A stretch of 42,702 bases of DNA, from assembly GCA_964470485.1 (NCBI GenBank), contig CAYYCT010000003.1, forward strand, positions 1 through 42,702. The letters run 5' to 3'. The notes under the pieces are model-generated. The model ran no database searches. It was not told the origin of the DNA and saw only the letters and a program-made list of their open reading frames with translations. The DNA is from an uncultured Candidatus Saccharibacteria bacterium. Lineage in GTDB: Bacteria > Patescibacteriota > Minisyncoccia > Phycocordibacterales > UBA5272. Made by a program: the position numbers and the translations under genes. Of the stretch, positions 1,802 to 42,702 are shown piece after piece. Position 1 is the first letter of the stretch. Each line of letters starts with the position of its first letter.

Positions 1802-4800
1802 TTATGGTGTTACAGGGGTATCGGTTGTCGATGTGTCATTCTCTGATGATGTTGCTTGAGGGTCAATTGCTGGGGGATTTTCACCAGCAACACCATCATC
1901 TGATGATGTTGCTGTTGGTAATTCTTGTGGCGTAGTTGTAGCATCATCACTTGGTGGTGTCGATGAAGATGTTCCAGTCCCTCCACTTCCATCAGTTGGA
2001 CTGCCGTCTCCGATATTTCCAATCGGTGGCTGCATAAGAGGGATTGAAGATGTGTTTAATATGCTCTCAACCTGATCCCCATCAAGACAAACGTTCTCAC
2101 CATTTGCTTTCTTAATACATACTTTATCAGTATAAATTTCTTTTGCAAAAAGCTTATCAAAATACCCCGCAACAGCTCGCGTGGTAAGCGAAAGATATTC
2201 TACAACAACAGTATTTCCATGAATAAGCTTGTCGAATAGTGTTTGGTATACACTACGAGTCGGCGCTACAAAAGTGTCTGATGATGATGCAATTACTACA
2301 AGCCCTTCAGTGGATGAGAGGGTTAGTACTCGATGCTTATTTTCTACAACCATAAGTACTTTTGATGATGTTGCATCGAGTGGTGCATCTGAAATAGCGC
2401 GACCGATAGAATAGTTCGTCTCAAGTGCCTTCATAGCATATCCAGGGGTCGATGTTGAGATAGTAAGGTAGTCGCCTTGCTTAACAACACCATTTTCATT
2501 TGTCACAAATACTGGAACACGACCAGAAAATGCTATAGGTACTCCATTTTTTGTATTGCCTCCAAGAAGAATACCTGGGCGAGTTGAAATAACTCCGAGA
2601 GCCTCATCTCCAGCGTGCGCCTTTCTTACTGTCGACATCTGATAGGTATTAGTAGGTGTCTGCCCGTTGTCGAGCATCCACTCTTCTGTTGTTGAAGAAA
2701 ATGCTACAACAGTTCCTGCTATAAGAGGTTCGCTGGCTGGGTAATTTTCTGCAACGTCAGCAGGGGTACCTATAGTAGTCACACCATCAGTAAATATATC
2801 CCCATTTGCTTTAACTTTAAATACAGTATCTCCGGTACTTCCTACGTCAGAAATAATTCTTAACATGTCGGTACTCGTTGCAGCTGTAGCCTTATAAATA
2901 TCAAGAGTAGAGCCTGGTGTACTCGTTCCTATTCCAACATTACCATTTGCGAGAATTTGGAAAAGTGTCGCACCGGTTGAAGACGAGACTGCAAAAGGAT
3001 TAGTCGTTGACGTTCCTCTTACATAAAGTGTCTCTGCTGGAATAATGTCAGTCCCTACACTAACCCTCCCACGATTACTAGCTAAGAAAATATCCCCTGC
3101 TGAAGTCCCGTGTCCTCCATTTATAACCACATTACCTCCAGTATAAAGATCAGATGCTCCCGCTGTGAGAGTAATTGATCCTCCAGATGTAAGAGCTCCT
3201 GTTGACCCTCCCGCAGTAAGAGAAACATTTCCCCCAGCATTACCATTCCCAGAAATTAGATTAATATGCCCACCAGGACCGGCACTACCATTACCTCCAG
3301 TAACAGTAAATGTTCCACCGGTATTACCAGTCCCCCCAGTAAAAGAATATGCTCCTCCAGTACCTGCCGTGCCGTGCCCGTTACCACCTATGAATGAAAA
3401 TCCGCCACCATTACTTGCTGCGCCTGATCCATAATTCCCCCCCACAAATGAATACCCTCCACCATTACCAGATGTCCCAGCTATTGGTCGAGCATCAATG
3501 ATGTTAGGCGCTTGACCCGTTACTGAAGTGCCCCCAAGAGAAAGAAGCGCGGAGAATGATGATGTAGCAATCCCTACGTTACCGTTCTGAAGAATACGGA
3601 AGAGTGATGTCCCGCTAGAGGAAGCAATTTCTAGCGGGTTAATACCTCCTGTACCTCGTAATGTAAGTGTATAGTTAGGAGACGTAGTTCCTATACCAAC
3701 ATTTACCGCGTCAGTTGAAGTGCCACCAAGTACAATTGAGTTAGATAATGCTACTTTTGCGTTCTTTCCGATAGCAGTAATATTAGTAAGAGCAGTAGAC
3801 GATGATATTGTTGCATCACGAGAAGCTTGATAACCAATAAATGTTGAATAATTATCTATATAGCTTCTTTCATTAAGAAGCACACCAAACCCAGCTGAGC
3901 GTCCTATTGCTGTATTTCCATCTCCATATAGTAATGAATATAGCGCACCTCCACCAATACCAATATTGTAACTACTTGTAGCAACTGAAAAAAGACTGTC
4001 TGCGCCAATTGCTAGATTATGATTACCTGATGTATTAGTACTTAGTGTTCCATCTCCAATTGCGGTATTATTGTCTCCTGTAAGATTGTTTAAAAGTGCC
4101 TGCCTACCAACTGCGATGTTATAGTCCCCTTGTGTGTTATATCGAAGAGCCTCCGAACCAAATGCGGCGTTAGAATTACCAGAATTAGTGTTACTAAGGG
4201 CTCTATATCCAAATGCAGTATTTCTTGTATTTGTCGCTGATGATCCGGCTAAATAGCCAAGAAAAGTATTATCTTGTGTAGTTGATGCAAACATAAACTT
4301 AGCACTGTTCCAGTACATCCAGCTATCTCCATTACTTTTAGCTGCACCAAAATTTACTTCCCCAAAACTTGATGTTGCAGTTGTTGACGCAGCAATGAAA
4401 ATGTCTGCACTTGTAATCCCAGATACAGTTAGACTGTACGGAGGAGTCTTAGTTCCAATTCCAAGACGTGTATTAGTATTATCCCAGAAGAACTTAGAGT
4501 TATTTTCTGAAAGAAGCCCCCCTGTACTGATAAAAGGAATAGAACCAGAAGTAAAGTTAGAGAGATAAAAATTTCCAGATGTGGTAAACGCAGTAGCTGA
4601 TGCTGTAGCAAGCGTACTCTGTCCTGTGACAGAAAGAGAACCAACTGAAGCAGTTACAGACGAGAGGTTAGTTGAAGTAGCGTTTGTCGTCGAAGCATTT
4701 GTCGTAACAAGATTGGTTGTTGTTGCATTCGTAGCAGTAAGGTTAGTGAAGATTGCAGTAACAGCATTTAAGAGTGTGGAGTAGAGATTGGTTGCAGTTA

Positions 4801-38894: not shown

Positions 38895-39368
38895 TTAGTT
38901 TTTTAGAAGAAACAGAGTCATTGCTATTACCACAGAAACAACCAAATAATACCCCGATGAGACCAAAAATTTCATCTGTGACTTTGCATCATAGTGATTC
39001 CCTTGTATTGTGTAAATCATGTCAACAAAACGCGTTGTAACAATAAAACCAAAAGCAAGTAACAAACTGAGACTTATAGCAAGTTTTAGTGAACTAATGC
39101 TAAGGAGATCAAATATGATGGCAAGCACTGACGCCATTGCTCCATGAGCAATAAAAGAGTACGTCTGAATCTGTACCATATATCTAGCACTTCTTTTTGG
39201 GAGCTGACTTTTTGTAATTCCTTCCCCCTTCATCCAAGCATTAATAAAAAGAAGTGGTGAATACCAAAGGGCTCCAATAGCAAAACCAGCACACGTTGCA
39301 ATAAAAATACTACCTGGTGTCAAAAAAGTTTCCATACCTAATAGTATATCGCTGAAAAGCCAATCCAT
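38895..39368 (-). CDS. DUF1761-like membrane protein
   Basis: FIATCAGFAIGALWYSPLLFINAWMKGEG matches the DUF1761 N-terminal pattern as I recall it. Four hydrophobic helices. The start may be Met12 (39335). Confidence 0.5.
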   Translation of the reverse strand: MDWLFSDILLGMETFLTPGSIFIATCAGFAIGALWYSPLLFINAWMKGEGITKSQLPKRSARYMVQIQTYSFIAHGAMASVLAIIFDLLSISSLKLAISLSLLLAFGFIVTTRFVDMIYTIQGNHYDAKSQMKFLVSSGYYLVVSVVIAMTLFLLKN

Positions 39369-39418
39369 AGGACTACGTTGTGCACATTATTTCATCAATC
39401 TCCTAATACCGACCAGAA

Positions 39419-39607
39419 TTACCAAGAATATCCTTTTTTGTTTATCACAATAATACTAATTCCAAGAGCAATAAATATACCTCCACCAATAACTGCCCCG
39501 AGGGTGTTTATTCCCTGAAGTGATGCAAGAACTCCGAGCACGGTGATACCTGACCCGCCAACAATTATTGCAACACCAAGCAGTTTAAAAATTATCTTCA
39601 TAGACAA
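39419..39607 (-). CDS. small two-helix membrane protein (62 aa)
   Basis: Gly/Ile-rich hydrophobic ORF, 7 nt downstream of the preceding gene. Confidence 0.4.
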   Translation of the reverse strand: MSMKIIFKLLGVAIIVGGSGITVLGVLASLQGINTLGAVIGGGIFIALGISIIVINKKGYSW

Positions 39608-39613
39608 ATACTT

Positions 39614-39868
39614 TTATTTTACCGGAGACCCTATCTGTTCAAGCGCTGCCCGAAATTCTGCCACCTGAGCATTAAATGCTGGAATAACACCAATAATATT
39701 AAGAACCCATCCGATTAGAATAACAATGAGGGCTGCCCCAATAATATACCCCGCACCATAGATAAGTCCACGCACTAGCGTAGCAAAAAGCCCATTAGAA
39801 CCTTTTCGCAATTCAACAATTTCTCTTTCTATATTTTCGAGGTGAGTTTTTAGTTCTGGATCTATCAT
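39614..39868 (-). CDS. small membrane protein (84 aa)
   Basis: An N-terminal amphipathic segment followed by one long hydrophobic helix (GLIYGAGYIIGAALIVILIGWVLNIIGVI). Confidence 0.5.
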   Translation of the reverse strand: MIDPELKTHLENIEREIVELRKGSNGLFATLVRGLIYGAGYIIGAALIVILIGWVLNIIGVIPAFNAQVAEFRAALEQIGSPVK

Positions 39869-39926
39869 ATATGGTTATGATAGAAGTATAGCATGGAGAA
39901 ATGAATAGATCTCTAACTTCAAAACG

Positions 39927-39986
39927 GAGTCGGTCGCAAATCTGCCTCGCTCTGCTCAAAGCAGATTCGCGACCCCTATTCGACTC
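39927..39986 (-). repeat. 60-nt structured element, copy A (inverted partner of 41615-41674)
   Basis: Identical to the reverse complement of copy B at 59/60 positions. Folds as GAGTC / 7-nt bulge / 14-bp stem / 15-nt loop. The strand is assigned from G-U versus A-C pairing logic. Confidence 0.7.
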
Positions 39987-40028
39987 TCCCGTAAACCATG
40001 CAGATGGTTTACTTATACTGATCACAGT

Positions 40029-40066
40029 CAACAAAAATACATAGGAAAACCTATGTATTTTTGTTG
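40029..40066 (-). terminator. hairpin terminator after tRNA-Glu
   Basis: CAACAAAAATACATAGG-AAAA-CCTATGTATTTTTGTTG: perfect 17-bp arms, 3 nt from the tRNA 3' end. Confidence 0.65.
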
Positions 40067-40069
40067 ATG

Positions 40070-40141
40070 TGACCCCACGGAGAGTCGAACTCCGCTTACC
40101 GGCATGAAAAGCCGATGTCCTAACCGATAGACGATGGGGCC
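40070..40141 (-). tRNA. tRNA-Glu (anticodon UUC)
   Basis: GGCCCCA-TC-GTCT-ATCGGTTA-GGAC-A-TCGGC-TTTTCAT-GCCGG-TAAG-CGGAG-TTCGACT-CTCCG-TGGGGTC-A. CCA is not encoded. Confidence 0.9.
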
Positions 40142-40252
40142 AGATATAAACAGCCCTTAGCTTTTAGCGAGAACTGAAATATGTACATGGCATAATACCA
40201 TATTATTTTACTTTTTCAAAATTGGTGGTCATACTGTATAATACTATCCATA

Positions 40253-40325
40253 AGGGCGGTTAGCTCAGTTGGTAGAGCGCCACATTGACGTTGTGGATGT
40301 CAGAGGTTCGACTCCTCTATCGCCC
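40253..40325 (+). tRNA. tRNA-Val (anticodon GAC)
   Basis: GGGCGGT-TA-GCTC-AGTTGGTA-GAGC-G-CCACA-TTGACGT-TGTGG-ATGTC-AGAGG-TTCGACT-CCTCT-ATCGCCC-A. TATAAT at 40236-40241 lies upstream. Confidence 0.9.
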
Positions 40326-40431
40326 ACTCTAACAGTAGACACCCAAAAACCAGTTGAAAAGAAACCAACTATAGGTGAAAAAGTGTCAGGATTTTTTAAG
40401 AAGATATTTTGGAGATAATTTGAGCGAACAC

Positions 40432-40460
40432 TTGACAGATATAGTTTATATGTATAGTAT
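40432..40460 (+). promoter_or_regulatory. candidate promoter of ORF 40516-40908
   Basis: TTGACA (40432-40437), 17 nt, TAGTAT (40455-40460). Confidence 0.4.
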
Positions 40461-40515
40461 TATGTCCACCATTCTTAGTGGTAAGCTCTTTCATTAACCC
40501 AATCAGGAGAACATC

Positions 40516-40908
40516 TTGAAACCAGAAGAAATTGAGTTCCGTGTGAACCGTGACGAAAATGGTGTGACTGGTTTCAGTCTCACCGCCAAACCAGAACACT
40601 ACGCTGAGTGCTACTGCTTGTCGTTTGTGTCTGCCCAACAAAAGGGCAACGCAACGGTGAAGTTCGAGGGTGGCAAGATTGTTTTTGACCACAAGGGTGC
40701 TTCTGACGACAAGCTCGGTGTCTTTGGATACAGCGATGGCGGTATCTTCACTGCTGAAATCTCGCCCGAAGACCAAGAAGCCCTTGAATCCTTGATGTCT
40801 CGTACTGGCAAGTATGCCAACGCCGAAGTTCGGGTCAAGTATGAAATGGCGTTCAGTCGTGGCTTCACCCTCTACGCCAAACTTGCAGAGCAGACCAGTC
40901 CTGCATAA
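40516..40908 (+). CDS. hypothetical protein (130 aa) in a ~51% GC gene
   Basis: TTG start preceded by AGGAG at a 6-nt spacing. G/C-rich third codon positions. A terminator hairpin follows at 40934-40956. No family recognised. Confidence 0.6.
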   Translation: MKPEEIEFRVNRDENGVTGFSLTAKPEHYAECYCLSFVSAQQKGNATVKFEGGKIVFDHKGASDDKLGVFGYSDGGIFTAEISPEDQEALESLMSRTGKYANAEVRVKYEMAFSRGFTLYAKLAEQTSPA

Positions 40909-40923
40909 CAACAACCAGAAGCA

Positions 40924-41352
40924 TTACAACTTCAAAACCGACCTTGTGTCGGTTTTAACTTTTATAGAAATATCTTTTATCCTTTTTATAGCCTCTTGTA
41001 ACTCTGGTGAGTCATAACCTCCGTATCTTCCTCGGACCGAATGAGTACCAAACTCTTGAGGGAGCTTTCTTTCTAAGTATCTAAGGGCAAGACGTCCATC
41101 TTTTTCTATTGCTTTTACTAATTGCTCTCTAGCCTTTAATATGACCTCATTTTTCCACTGTTGTTTTTGCTGTAAAAAGTCAGGGTTATTTTTCTGGTAA
41201 TTATAGAGTGTCTTTTCTGAGATACCAGCCAAACTACAAGCTTCTTTATCTGTAGAGTCCACAGAGTAAGCCATTTTTAGCTCACTTAAAACGTGTCTAC
41301 TTATTACAGTCGGTCTTCCGTATTTTTTATGATTTTTTGAAAAAGTTTTCAT
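40924..41352 (-). CDS. HTH DNA-binding protein (142 aa) with a phage small-terminase-like N-terminal pattern
   Basis: GRPTVISRHVLSELKMAYSVDSTDKEACSLAGISEKTLYNYQKNNPDFLQQKQQW follows the GRP(T/S)..-HTH-..W pattern common in phage small terminase and transposase-type HTH proteins. This is from memory, not searched. Confidence 0.55.
   Translation of the reverse strand: MKTFSKNHKKYGRPTVISRHVLSELKMAYSVDSTDKEACSLAGISEKTLYNYQKNNPDFLQQKQQWKNEVILKAREQLVKAIEKDGRLALRYLERKLPQEFGTHSVRGRYGGYDSPELQEAIKRIKDISIKVKTDTRSVLKL
40934..40956. terminator. bidirectional hairpin terminator between convergent ORFs
   Basis: AAAACCGAC-CTTGT-GTCGGTTTT. It overlaps the last codons of the minus-strand HTH ORF. Confidence 0.55.
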
Positions 41353-41526
41353 ATTTTCTTTACTTACAGTGTAGTGTTCTAATACTCTTACGTTATAATC
41401 TTAATGAGCATTATCGTTACCAAACAAGCCCACTTTGAGCAAACTCTGGTATGGTTCTTGATGTAAAAACCATTTTCCAACGTAAAACCTCACTTTCTAA
41501 GGTGTTCCAGTTCAAAAAACTAGAGT

Positions 41527-41580
41527 CCACAGAAATTTAAAACGTGACATCATATGATGTCACGTTTTAAATTTCTGTGG
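41527..41580. repeat. perfect 54-bp palindrome (27-bp arms, no spacer)
   Basis: CCACAGAAATTTAAAACGTGACATCAT|ATGATGTCACGTTTTAAATTTCTGTGG, in a divergent intergenic region. Confidence 0.85.
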
Positions 41581-41622
41581 GCGATAAGCACATGACTTAG
41601 GTTATGTGCGTGAGGAGTCGAA
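41577..41622 (-). pseudogene. inverted, interrupted copy of the tRNA-Val 3' end
   Basis: The reverse complement reads TTCGACTCCTC-[25 nt with a 6-bp hairpin]-TATCGCCCAC. The two parts together equal tRNA-Val 40306-40326 (21/21 nt). Confidence 0.6.
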
Positions 41623-41674
41623 TAGGGGTCGCGAATCTGCTTTGAGCAGAGCGAGGCAGATTTGTGACCGACTC
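41615..41674 (+). repeat. 60-nt structured element, copy B
   Basis: GAGTCGAATAGGGGTCGCGAATCTGCTTTGAGCAGAGCGAGGCAGATTTGTGACCGACTC. The fold is the same as copy A. It starts 133 nt upstream of the start of the 41807 gene. Confidence 0.7.
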
Positions 41675-41806
41675 TTCCTTGGAGCGAAGTGATTTTAATG
41701 TCTGTATTTTACAACAACACACATTTTGTAAATAAATGGTGGCTGTCGCTATTCTCCTTCAACGATCCCTAGCAATTACCACAGAAGAGTAATAAAATGT
41801 AAAGAT

Positions 41807-42702
41807 ATGAAAATTAATAATAGAAAAATGTTTAGCTTAGCTTTTATTCTTTTTAGCGCTCTAGCCTCAATATCTGTGACTTCGGCTCTCACTATTTCTC
41901 CTGCAAAAGCAGAACTCACTGCTGACCCGGGCGAAACAATCACTAGTACTTTCATTATTATTAATGAGCAAGATACTGAGCAAACATTTTATACTTCGGT
42001 AGAGAATTTTGAATCTTCAGGCAAAGCAGGAATACCTAATTTCACTAACTCAAAAGAAGGACTTCCTTCTTGGACAAAAGTGGATGAGAAAGTGGTGCTT
42101 AAAAAAGGAGAAAGACTTAAGATTCCTTATTCTGTCGCCGTTCCGAAGGATGCGGATGCTGGAGGGCACTTTGCAGCAATTTTCCTATCAACATCATCTA
42201 CTACAGCAGGGGTTGGTTCCAAGCTTGGCATGCTTGTTTTTCTTAAAGTTACGGGTGTCACTAAAAAAATAGAGACTCCTGTTTTAAAGAGATCAACTTC
42301 TACGCAAGCTCTATTAACAATAAACGCAACCACAACAGAGAAAGATATTGTTACAATAAATAGTAACCTAAAATACGGACAAAGAAACTCAGAAATCTTT
42401 GCACTACAGGATTTTCTTATTGATAAAGGTTTTCTAAATGGTAATTCTTCTGGTTTCTTCGGGTTGTTAACTTTTAAAGCTGTTAAAGCCTATCAGAAGA
42501 GTGTTGGCATTAATCCAACAGGCTATGTTGGACTACTTACTCGACAAAAAATAAACAGTGAGATTATAGCAGAAGTGGGGAGCTCCATCAAAGCAGAGCA
42601 ACAAGAGGTTGGGACATCAACTCAAAGTTTTAACAACAGCACTACAACATCAAGTAAAAATGGAAGCGAGGATAGGAAAACTGTAAAAGCATTTATAACA
42701 AC
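41807..42702 (+). CDS. secreted protein with a C-terminal-side peptidoglycan-binding domain; 3' end outside the window
   Basis: Open frame from ATG 41807 to the window edge. It is absent from the ORF track because it has no stop. Signal peptide MKINNRKMFSLAFILFSALASISVTSA. A DUF916-like segment reads ISPAKAELTADPGETITSTFIIINE..AGGHFAAIF. A PG_binding_1-like motif reads GQRNSEIFALQDFLIDKGFL..GLLTFKAVKAYQKSVGINPTGYVG. Confidence 0.7.
   Translation, partial: MKINNRKMFSLAFILFSALASISVTSALTISPAKAELTADPGETITSTFIIINEQDTEQTFYTSVENFESSGKAGIPNFTNSKEGLPSWTKVDEKVVLKKGERLKIPYSVAVPKDADAGGHFAAIFLSTSSTTAGVGSKLGMLVFLKVTGVTKKIETPVLKRSTSTQALLTINATTTEKDIVTINSNLKYGQRNSEIFALQDFLIDKGFLNGNSSGFFGLLTFKAVKAYQKSVGINPTGYVGLLTRQKINSEIIAEVGSSIKAEQQEVGTSTQSFNNSTTTSSKNGSEDRKTVKAFIT

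Follow-up and report, generated by a model that had tools for sequence, protein, structure and literature searches.

What kind of locus places two near-identical, oppositely oriented sequences on either side of a pair of tRNA genes and two open reading frames (ORFs)? The question arises from contig CAYYCT010000003.1, 42,702 nucleotides (nt) long and analysed here over its whole length (hereafter the window), which belongs to a 733-kb genome of 58 contigs, 92% complete and of the Paceibacteria type within the Candidate Phyla Radiation (CPR). A first-pass annotation had described positions 39927-41674 as a segment bounded by near-perfect inverted repeats, and the repeats themselves are readily reproduced: the two arms, 39927-39986 and 41615-41674, are each 60 nt long and complementary at 59 of 60 positions (98%), with a spacing of 1628 nt, and a 38-nt core pattern of the arms finds exactly two matches in the window and none in shuffled sequence. 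Comparison with other copies and other genomes shows that the region comprises three independent things, namely a divergent tRNA pair, one folded module behind each tRNA, and a foreign cassette of 1,203 bp. The arms are very probably two copies of a family of folded sequences that trail tRNA genes, the separate cassette sitting between tRNA-Val and its module. The repeat is real, but framing it as one bounded unit is mistaken and is not supported; it is the ordinary consequence of two outward-facing modules and a probable island remnant. The interest of the locus lies in the module family, which is apparently undescribed in the literature searched. The elements concerned are these:

39922-40014, minus strand: module trailing tRNA-Glu (covariance model R1, 93.4 bits, E 2e-21), containing the left arm 39927-39986.
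40028-40067, minus strand: perfect 18-bp A/T-rich hairpin directly behind tRNA-Glu, an inverted repeat composed of A-tract, stem and U-tract.
40069-40141, minus strand: tRNA-Glu(UUC) (ARAGORN; Rfam tRNA model, 52.6 bits), with no encoded CCA.
40192-40242, both strands: back-to-back promoter-like hexamers of the divergent tRNA genes (consensus scan).
40254-40327, plus strand: tRNA-Val(GAC) (ARAGORN; Rfam tRNA model, 67.7 bits).
40328-41530, no strand assigned: foreign cassette, 1,203 bp between tRNA-Val and its own hairpin and module.
41527-41580, plus strand: perfect 54-bp palindrome, the displaced terminator-like hairpin of tRNA-Val.
41577-41586 and 41612-41622, plus strand: the final 21 nt of tRNA-Val copied in antisense, in two pieces with a small hairpin (41588-41609) between them; relatives have the same layout.
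41586-41679, plus strand: module trailing tRNA-Val (R1, 96.8 bits, E 3e-22), containing the right arm 41615-41674, with the tail CGACTCTTCC.

Several of these had been recognised beforehand. Both tRNAs, said to lie on the minus (Glu) and plus (Val) strands between the arms, are found by ARAGORN and by Rfam; the perfect 54-bp palindrome is recovered, and the inverted fragment of tRNA-Val is real, although in two pieces. What the first-pass annotation implied to be a unique 60-mer proves to be a family. The genome itself holds 12 diverged copies detectable by BLAST and at least 16 sense-strand copies detectable with R1, so that the whole-genome search which that annotation had proposed reveals a dispersed, multi-copy repeat independent of the cargo, largely the outcome it had named as speaking against its own segment. 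R1 matches are present in all 24 genomes of the genus that were tested, at 1-24 per genome, with weaker scores in other families of the order, and matches to the family extend to metagenome-assembled genomes of Candidatus Paceibacterota, Parcubacteria and Nomurabacteria.

The association with tRNA genes is close. Nearly all copies in the window's own genome lie 55-85 nt downstream of a tRNA on the same strand, or where a tRNA is truncated by the end of a contig. Among Paceibacteria loci with enough upstream sequence, a same-strand tRNA ends no more than 150 nt upstream of 102 of the 130 modules, and a further nine have one 150-236 nt away, a distance that indicates modules in tandem. The tRNAs concerned cover 18 amino-acid types. 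Scanning positions 39000-42702 against Rfam 15 with cmscan (E up to 10) placed no family over the modules, the matches being the two tRNAs and chance miRNA-like hits on palindromes, and no description of a tRNA-trailing module in CPR bacteria was found in the literature searched. Many contigs of the assembly also end within or beside a module or a cut tRNA, at both ends of C18 and C31 and at the start of C54 and C11; the family evidently breaks short-read assembly, and tRNA and module counts are therefore underestimated.

The usual layout is constant. Behind the tRNA come an A/T-rich terminator-like hairpin, an antisense copy of the acceptor 3' strand and a 9-bp hairpin whose loop is usually CUGC. 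Next, the T-stem and T-loop are copied in antisense; a bulge of conserved sequence, GAAUAGG, and a 14-bp hairpin (P2) follow, and last comes a sense copy of the tRNA, which starts at the T-loop (CGAWUC) and in many copies runs through the acceptor end plus a few trailer bases. The structured module measures about 95 nt, the 60-nt arm being its core of outer stem, bulge and P2. The Glu module of the window has the CUGC-loop hairpin at 39991-40012, P1 as its outer stem, the bulge GAAUAGG, P2 with its 14 bp, and a short tail. The outer stem copies the T-loop and 3' end of the module's own tRNA, and the sense repeat amounts to 19-22 nt of that tRNA in the copies on contigs C17 (behind both Gly and Pro), C18, C31 and C32; the two window modules retain only CGACTC plus a few bases, 7-10 nt in all. 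A second subtype was seen behind tRNA-Val in two relatives (L142, G062:C20, 1821-2080; L150, G067, 2607-2780). Its order is an antisense copy without interruption (GGCGATAGAGGAGTCGAAC), a hairpin of another kind (TGAGATGC...CATTTTG...CAAAATGG...) and a P2 core; it stands in tandem with the usual type in G062 and is mostly missed by R1.

The pattern of substitution indicates that the module stems are under selection as a folded single strand. Among the 12 copies of the genome itself, 19 of the 33 predicted pairs show compensatory changes, in which both sides have altered and pairing is kept. An alignment of 135 distinct sequences, fitted to the R1 model so that its pairing and covariation figures lean the model's way, has 94.2% of its cells paired, as against 75.4% in shuffles, with 26 of 33 pairs changing on both sides; its covariation score is 0.524, compared with 0.195 in shuffles (none of 500 reaching the observed value) and no more than 0.099 when partners are slid. 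G-U pairs outnumber A-C mismatches by 381 to 43, or by 147 to 43 once two fixed G-U pairs, partly imposed by the search pattern, are left aside. This excess points to the single-stranded form of the strand that carries the tRNA sense and so fixes the strand. Predicted folds concur: the Glu module reaches -35.4 kcal/mol (z -4.7) on the minus strand and the Val module -38.2 kcal/mol (z -4.1) on the plus strand, and each arm folds better on the strand reading outward from the segment, because of its G-U pairs. That the modules form an inverted repeat at all follows from their two tRNAs pointing away from each other.

The close similarity of the two arms can be set against that of other copies. 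The core of the window Glu module is 98% identical to that of the window Val module, and both are 93-95% identical to the copy on C32; by comparison, the Glu core shares only 77% with its orthologue in G062, and the Val core 68-93% with five Val orthologues. Copies within the genome are thus more alike than orthologues, as gene conversion, or a recent spread inside this one genome, would make them, and the two window cores appear from these identities to have been homogenised by gene conversion. The outer stems agree because the T-loop CGACTC is common to both tRNAs, and the match ends where the 3' ends of tRNA-Glu and tRNA-Val differ. The proposal that near-identity argued for selection or recent gene conversion accordingly holds in its second form.

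The cassette is an independent acquisition. It enters at the very 3' end of tRNA-Val, between CCCAC and AGAAAT, and displaces the hairpin and module of that tRNA by 1.2 kb; the tRNA end ...TATCGCCCAC forms its left junction. An empty site is preserved in G009 (L138), where the counterparts of window positions 40254-40327 (944-1017) and 41527-41674 (1014-1161) are contiguous and the sequence reads ...TATCGCCCAC followed directly by AGAAATACAAAAAGCAGAATC...; likewise, tRNA-Val runs directly into its hairpin and module in G023, G064 and G062. At such empty sites the left arm of the palindrome continues straight on from the tRNA-Val 3' end. The palindrome can be aligned with the hairpin that immediately follows tRNA-Val in G009, and also with the one at the far end of an island in G061, a different hairpin occupying its position in G064, G023 and G056. 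The right edge of the cassette, GGTGTTCCAGTTCAAAAAACTAGAGTCCAC, imitates the 3' end of tRNA-Val in degenerate form, and 17 of its final 30 positions match, by eye, the right edge of the G061 island. Its contents are as follows:

40516-40908, plus strand: 130-aa ORF, 50% GC, with a promoter-like site at 40432-40460 (TTGACA-17-TAGTAT).
40924-41352, minus strand: 142-aa helix-turn-helix (HTH) ORF (phrog_4102, terminase small subunit, 1.1e-20).
40934-40956, plus strand: terminator-like hairpin between the convergent cassette ORFs, nine pairs followed by a T-rich tail.

These two ORFs are cargo of the insert and not of a repeat-bounded block. Their GC contents differ, at 50% for the 130-aa ORF and 35% for the HTH ORF, against a genome value of about 39%. 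The former has no Pfam or PHROG match, occurs in none of 52 genus genomes and has just two homologues among 5.8 billion proteins; neither is informative, one being on a 908-bp contig and the other beside a LAGLIDADG gene and a weak AcrVA2-like gene. The HTH ORF is a patchy accessory gene with a homologue in 3 of the 52 genus genomes, and also matches Pfam HTH_Tnp_1_2 at 20.7 bits, below the cut-off. The closest homologue, in G002 and 77% identical, is separated by 1.5 kb from the gene of a large serine recombinase of 535 aa, whose domains are Resolvase, Recombinase and Zn_ribbon.

Most of what the first-pass annotation said of this interior stands. The ORF of about 51% GC with promoter and terminator is confirmed at 50%, with a promoter-like site and a terminator-like hairpin, and the HTH ORF is terminase-like by its PHROG match and weakly transposase-like by its Pfam one. 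The comparison it recommended with relatives lacking the insert finds the divergent tRNA-Glu/tRNA-Val pair and the Val module in place without the ORFs. As for target-site duplication, none occurs outside the 60-nt arms, but the earlier statement that no obvious one exists needs amending, the true insert having CCAC at both junctions in addition to the tRNA-end mimic. Among the three readings then offered, that of two outward-facing copies of an RNA element flanking an islet fares best, the arms belonging to the module family and relatives keeping their modules without cargo; a decayed tRNA-targeting element is an apt description of the inner 40328-41530 and fails for the 60-nt repeats as its borders.

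What carried the cassette there is suggested by relatives. At the same point behind tRNA-Val, G061 has a 5.6-kb island whose first gene encodes a 519-aa large serine recombinase (Resolvase, Recombinase and Zn_ribbon) and which also bears a G2P-type rolling-circle Rep. With this recombinase at the same site, and with the HTH homologue of G002 near another, the cassette is probably a recombinase-less remnant of a large-serine-recombinase island or of a phage-satellite-like element targeting tRNA 3' ends. In the window itself, much as had been remarked for the segment, no transposase or recombinase was found, the cassette included. The search for a cognate enzyme elsewhere, also advised earlier, came back empty: no gene with a Resolvase domain was found in the assembly, and tblastn of the assembly with the serine recombinases of G061 and G002 and the IS200-type Y1 transposase of G002 gave no matches to them, only a truncated Rep on C32 being hit by these searches. 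The single tyrosine recombinase, on contig C5, is probably a housekeeping enzyme. Weighing against a serine-recombinase ancestry is its indirect nature, the relatives supplying it and the assembly itself having no such gene.

The truncated Rep belongs to a second island in the same genome. On C32, an island of about 2.9 kb and 35% GC lies between tRNA-Leu(CAA) (399-480) and its module (3442-3534), locus L013 covering C32 1942-5034; the module tail repeats 22 nt of tRNA-Leu(CAA). Its genes are the truncated G2P/Phage_CRI-type Rep, 75% identical to that of the G061 island, and a Peptidase_S51 gene, with no recombinase. In G061, a repeat of 160-200 nt and 76-88% identity (L139, G061:C4, 5223-5402 and 5810-6012) flanks a single small gene within the serine-recombinase island and includes the island's right-edge sequence, which suggests stacked cassettes with repeated att-like sites.

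Comparable islands are known elsewhere. A minority of the tycheposons rely on a large serine recombinase, and terS is found in some (bioRxiv 10.1101/2020.12.28.424599). The window cassette has several traits in common with Prochlorococcus tycheposons, with the satellites of Prochlorococcus that resemble phage-inducible chromosomal islands (PICI-like) and with Islander-type elements: it adjoins the 3' end of a tRNA gene without disrupting it, its distal edge is a weak imitation of that end, and it includes a small-terminase-like gene. It differs in having no recombinase and only two genes, and in that the conspicuous tRNA-derived repeats nearby are those of the resident module and not att sites. 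Compared with serine-recombinase tRNA islands in particular, the cassette has its insertion point at the 3' end of a tRNA and relatives in which the site is empty; a recombinase within the element was not found. The window thus makes a small, recombinase-less addition to the serine-recombinase cassettes at tRNA 3' ends in Patescibacteria.

There remains the question of what the modules are. The explanation we rank first, and hold tentatively with a chance a little short of even, is that each is a read-through RNA mimicking the end of its tRNA. The module would be transcribed by read-through of the tRNA terminator, as are tRNA-linked repeats (TLRs) of E. coli; its RNA would fold to a rod, the base of which imitates the acceptor/T-arm helix of its own tRNA; tRNA 3'-end processing enzymes might then trim the RNA by way of the mimicked helix, and the conserved P2 apex and bulge would offer a binding site for some partner. 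A working RNA is favoured by stems that covary, by a bulge and loops that are conserved, and by modules that are biased to one strand and keep a fixed place behind their tRNAs. Precedents in E. coli are RtT, behind tyrT-tyrV (RF00391), and rrA, rrB and rrF, behind 5S rRNA; the 3' end of a TLR repeats 18-19 bp of the 3' end of the upstream gene, three TLRs are made by terminator read-through and then processed, some lie between two terminators, and most have no known function (PMC8144298).

The modules resemble TLRs in lying directly downstream of a tRNA on the same strand (tRNA or rRNA in the case of TLRs) and in being multi-copy, and many repeat 19-22 nt of their tRNA, though the window copies repeat 7-10 nt. 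They differ in possessing an antisense copy of the tRNA 3' end, the CUGC-loop hairpin, and the conserved bulge and P2. The RF00391 model finds no match in positions 39000-42702 (cmscan, E up to 10) and, since homology to that model is lacking, the module is an analogue of RtT and not a member of its family.

A number of observations weigh against this first-ranked explanation. We infer transcription of the modules solely from the strand bias and the analogy with E. coli. The hairpin ahead of the module looks like an efficient terminator and may block read-through: that at 40028-40067, which has counterparts at the same position behind other module-bearing tRNAs, presumably acts as one, although a simple terminator scan did not flag it. 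The two partly imposed G-U pairs reduce the G-U excess. G017, a 100% complete genome of the same genus, has a single R1 match, and its tRNA-Pro is followed by a plain terminator; tRNA-Glu has no module in G009, G023, G056, G066 and G067; and tRNA-Pro has a module behind it in some genomes but none in G001, G017 and G063. Finally, the Val module of the window, though separated from its tRNA, shows no sign of decay. Modules so dispensable and polymorphic look more like selfish or relic elements than like a required cis-acting RNA.

It is accordingly quite possible, and our second choice, that a miniature mobile element enters tRNA genes at the T-loop, duplicating their 3' ends, and that the modules are its active copies or the footprints it has left; the window would then hold two of its insertions along with an unrelated cassette. 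There is a clean presence/absence pair at tRNA-Pro: the flanks of G017 (L158) and G047 agree at 98% on one side and 85% on the other, while some 195 additional nt stand immediately after the tRNA in G047, ending in a second tRNA 3' end and the start of the trailer, with the orthologous terminator following this extra stretch. Deletion between the direct repeats would, though, give 'empty' sites as well. Copy numbers of 1-24 per genome, tandem modules and polymorphism at orthologous tRNA-Glu genes fit an element on the move, as does a tRNA-Glu copy in G023 whose T-loop is interrupted by a P2-type core. In that copy (L140, G023:C7, about 1116-1290), the tRNA is normal as far as the 5' strand of the T-stem; some 90 nt with a P2-type core (GGGGTCGCGAC...GTTGTGACC) then replace the T-loop, the tRNA resumes with GACTCTCCGTGGTGT, and an intact tRNA-Glu stands just downstream.

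Against mobility of this kind, the antisense stretch is tailored to the module's own tRNA, which a simple cut-and-paste element cannot bring, and the marked covariation and the G-U bias are signs that a folded single strand is under selection. In the assembly, moreover, no transposase, serine recombinase or Y1 transposase was found, and just the one tyrosine recombinase. Likeness to miniature inverted-repeat transposable elements (MITEs) and REPINs extends to short, gene-less, multi-copy hairpin repeats in intergenic positions, often in inverted pairs and breaking short-read assemblies; the modules differ in being tied to tRNA 3' ends, locked to their strand and built of stems copied from them, and no RAYT/Y1 transposase gene was found in the assembly. 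An origin by insertion is compatible with function as an RNA.

A broader synthesis, which we consider rather unlikely, would draw these strands together: the modules would be undescribed strand-specific hairpin elements that enter the T-loop and copy the tRNA 3' end in both senses, perhaps persisting as tRNA-mimicking small RNAs; inverted copies would drive gene conversion and occasional inversion of tRNA clusters, and the gap between tRNA and module would be a preferred docking zone for serine-recombinase cassettes. If it were true, the window would display all three effects together.

That the modules serve as landing pads or recombination sites for large-serine-recombinase islands, so that the cassette and the Val module would be functionally linked, is improbable. 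Three islands do lie exactly between tRNA and module, in the window (Val), on C32 (Leu-CAA) and, with its recombinase, in G061 (Val). Yet the crossover, CCCAC to AGAAAT, is at the acceptor end, about 50 nt before the module and outside it; most modules have no island; and the window's own assembly has modules but no serine recombinase that could be found.

Still less probable is inversion of the segment between the modules, whether as a switch or through occasional homologous recombination between the 60-nt arms, flipping the tRNA pair and cassette. An inverted identity of 59 in 60 could serve as a substrate and suggests that the arms have recently exchanged sequence, and the tRNA-Glu/tRNA-Val pair is indeed flipped relative to the PilB, response-regulator and DUF1761 genes in G066 (L151, C1) and G067 (L150, C3). 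These flipped genomes nevertheless differ by kilobases of other sequence and by other rearrangements, and G067 has no R1 match behind either tRNA; the window orientation is common to G062, G056, G023, G006, G015 and G059. The antisense copy on the Val side fits tRNA-Val exactly, and the Val tail has diverged in the ordinary way, to judge by its orthologues. A search of the assembly for an invertase gene found none, whereas Hin/Gin/Fim-type invertible segments have theirs within or beside the segment, and in so symmetrical an arrangement a flip would bring no obvious change in regulation. Inversion by homologous recombination may happen now and then; a dedicated switch is unlikely. A past inversion that had swapped the tails, making the right one Glu and the left one Val, was considered and dropped, since orthologous Val tails keep CGACTCC(TC) and then diverge freely.

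Least credible of all is a single mobile unit of 1.75 kb ending in the 60-nt repeats, with tRNAs and ORFs as cargo: near-identical inverted arms do resemble terminal inverted repeats, and the enclosed ORFs are accessory and partly phage-like, but the arms are members of a family that numbers at least 16 copies, every one linked to a tRNA of its own, the parts have not moved jointly as those of a transposon or MITE with such termini would (relatives without the ORFs have the divergent tRNA pair and the Val module directly behind tRNA-Val), the real insert borders at 40328 and 41530 lie inside the repeats, and no transposase or serine recombinase was found in window or assembly.

Repeats around CPR tRNA genes, whether inverted or direct, should accordingly be checked for a module before being read as the borders of an island or transposon. 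In both the window and C32 the conspicuous tRNA-derived repeats are those of the resident module, the true island edge being elsewhere. The modules themselves constitute a large, covarying, strand-biased family with no Rfam entry, borne on tRNAs of at least 18 amino-acid types in very small genomes. TLRs have been known since 1978, mostly without a function, and whether they and the modules share a logic would be worth testing.

Some minor features complete the description. tRNA-Val(GAC) is 100% identical in relatives. The promoter scan between the divergent tRNA genes gave 10/12 on the plus strand (40213-40242) and 10/12, with a TG, on the minus strand (40219-40192). ORFs of 47 and 41 aa over the arms were dropped as coding candidates, the arms being read in different frames. 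The final 55 nt of the window's contig (42648-42702) are the first 55 nt of contig C30 of the same genome, an assembly overlap, and a gene for a secreted protein with a peptidoglycan-binding domain, from 41807 onward, therefore probably continues on C30.

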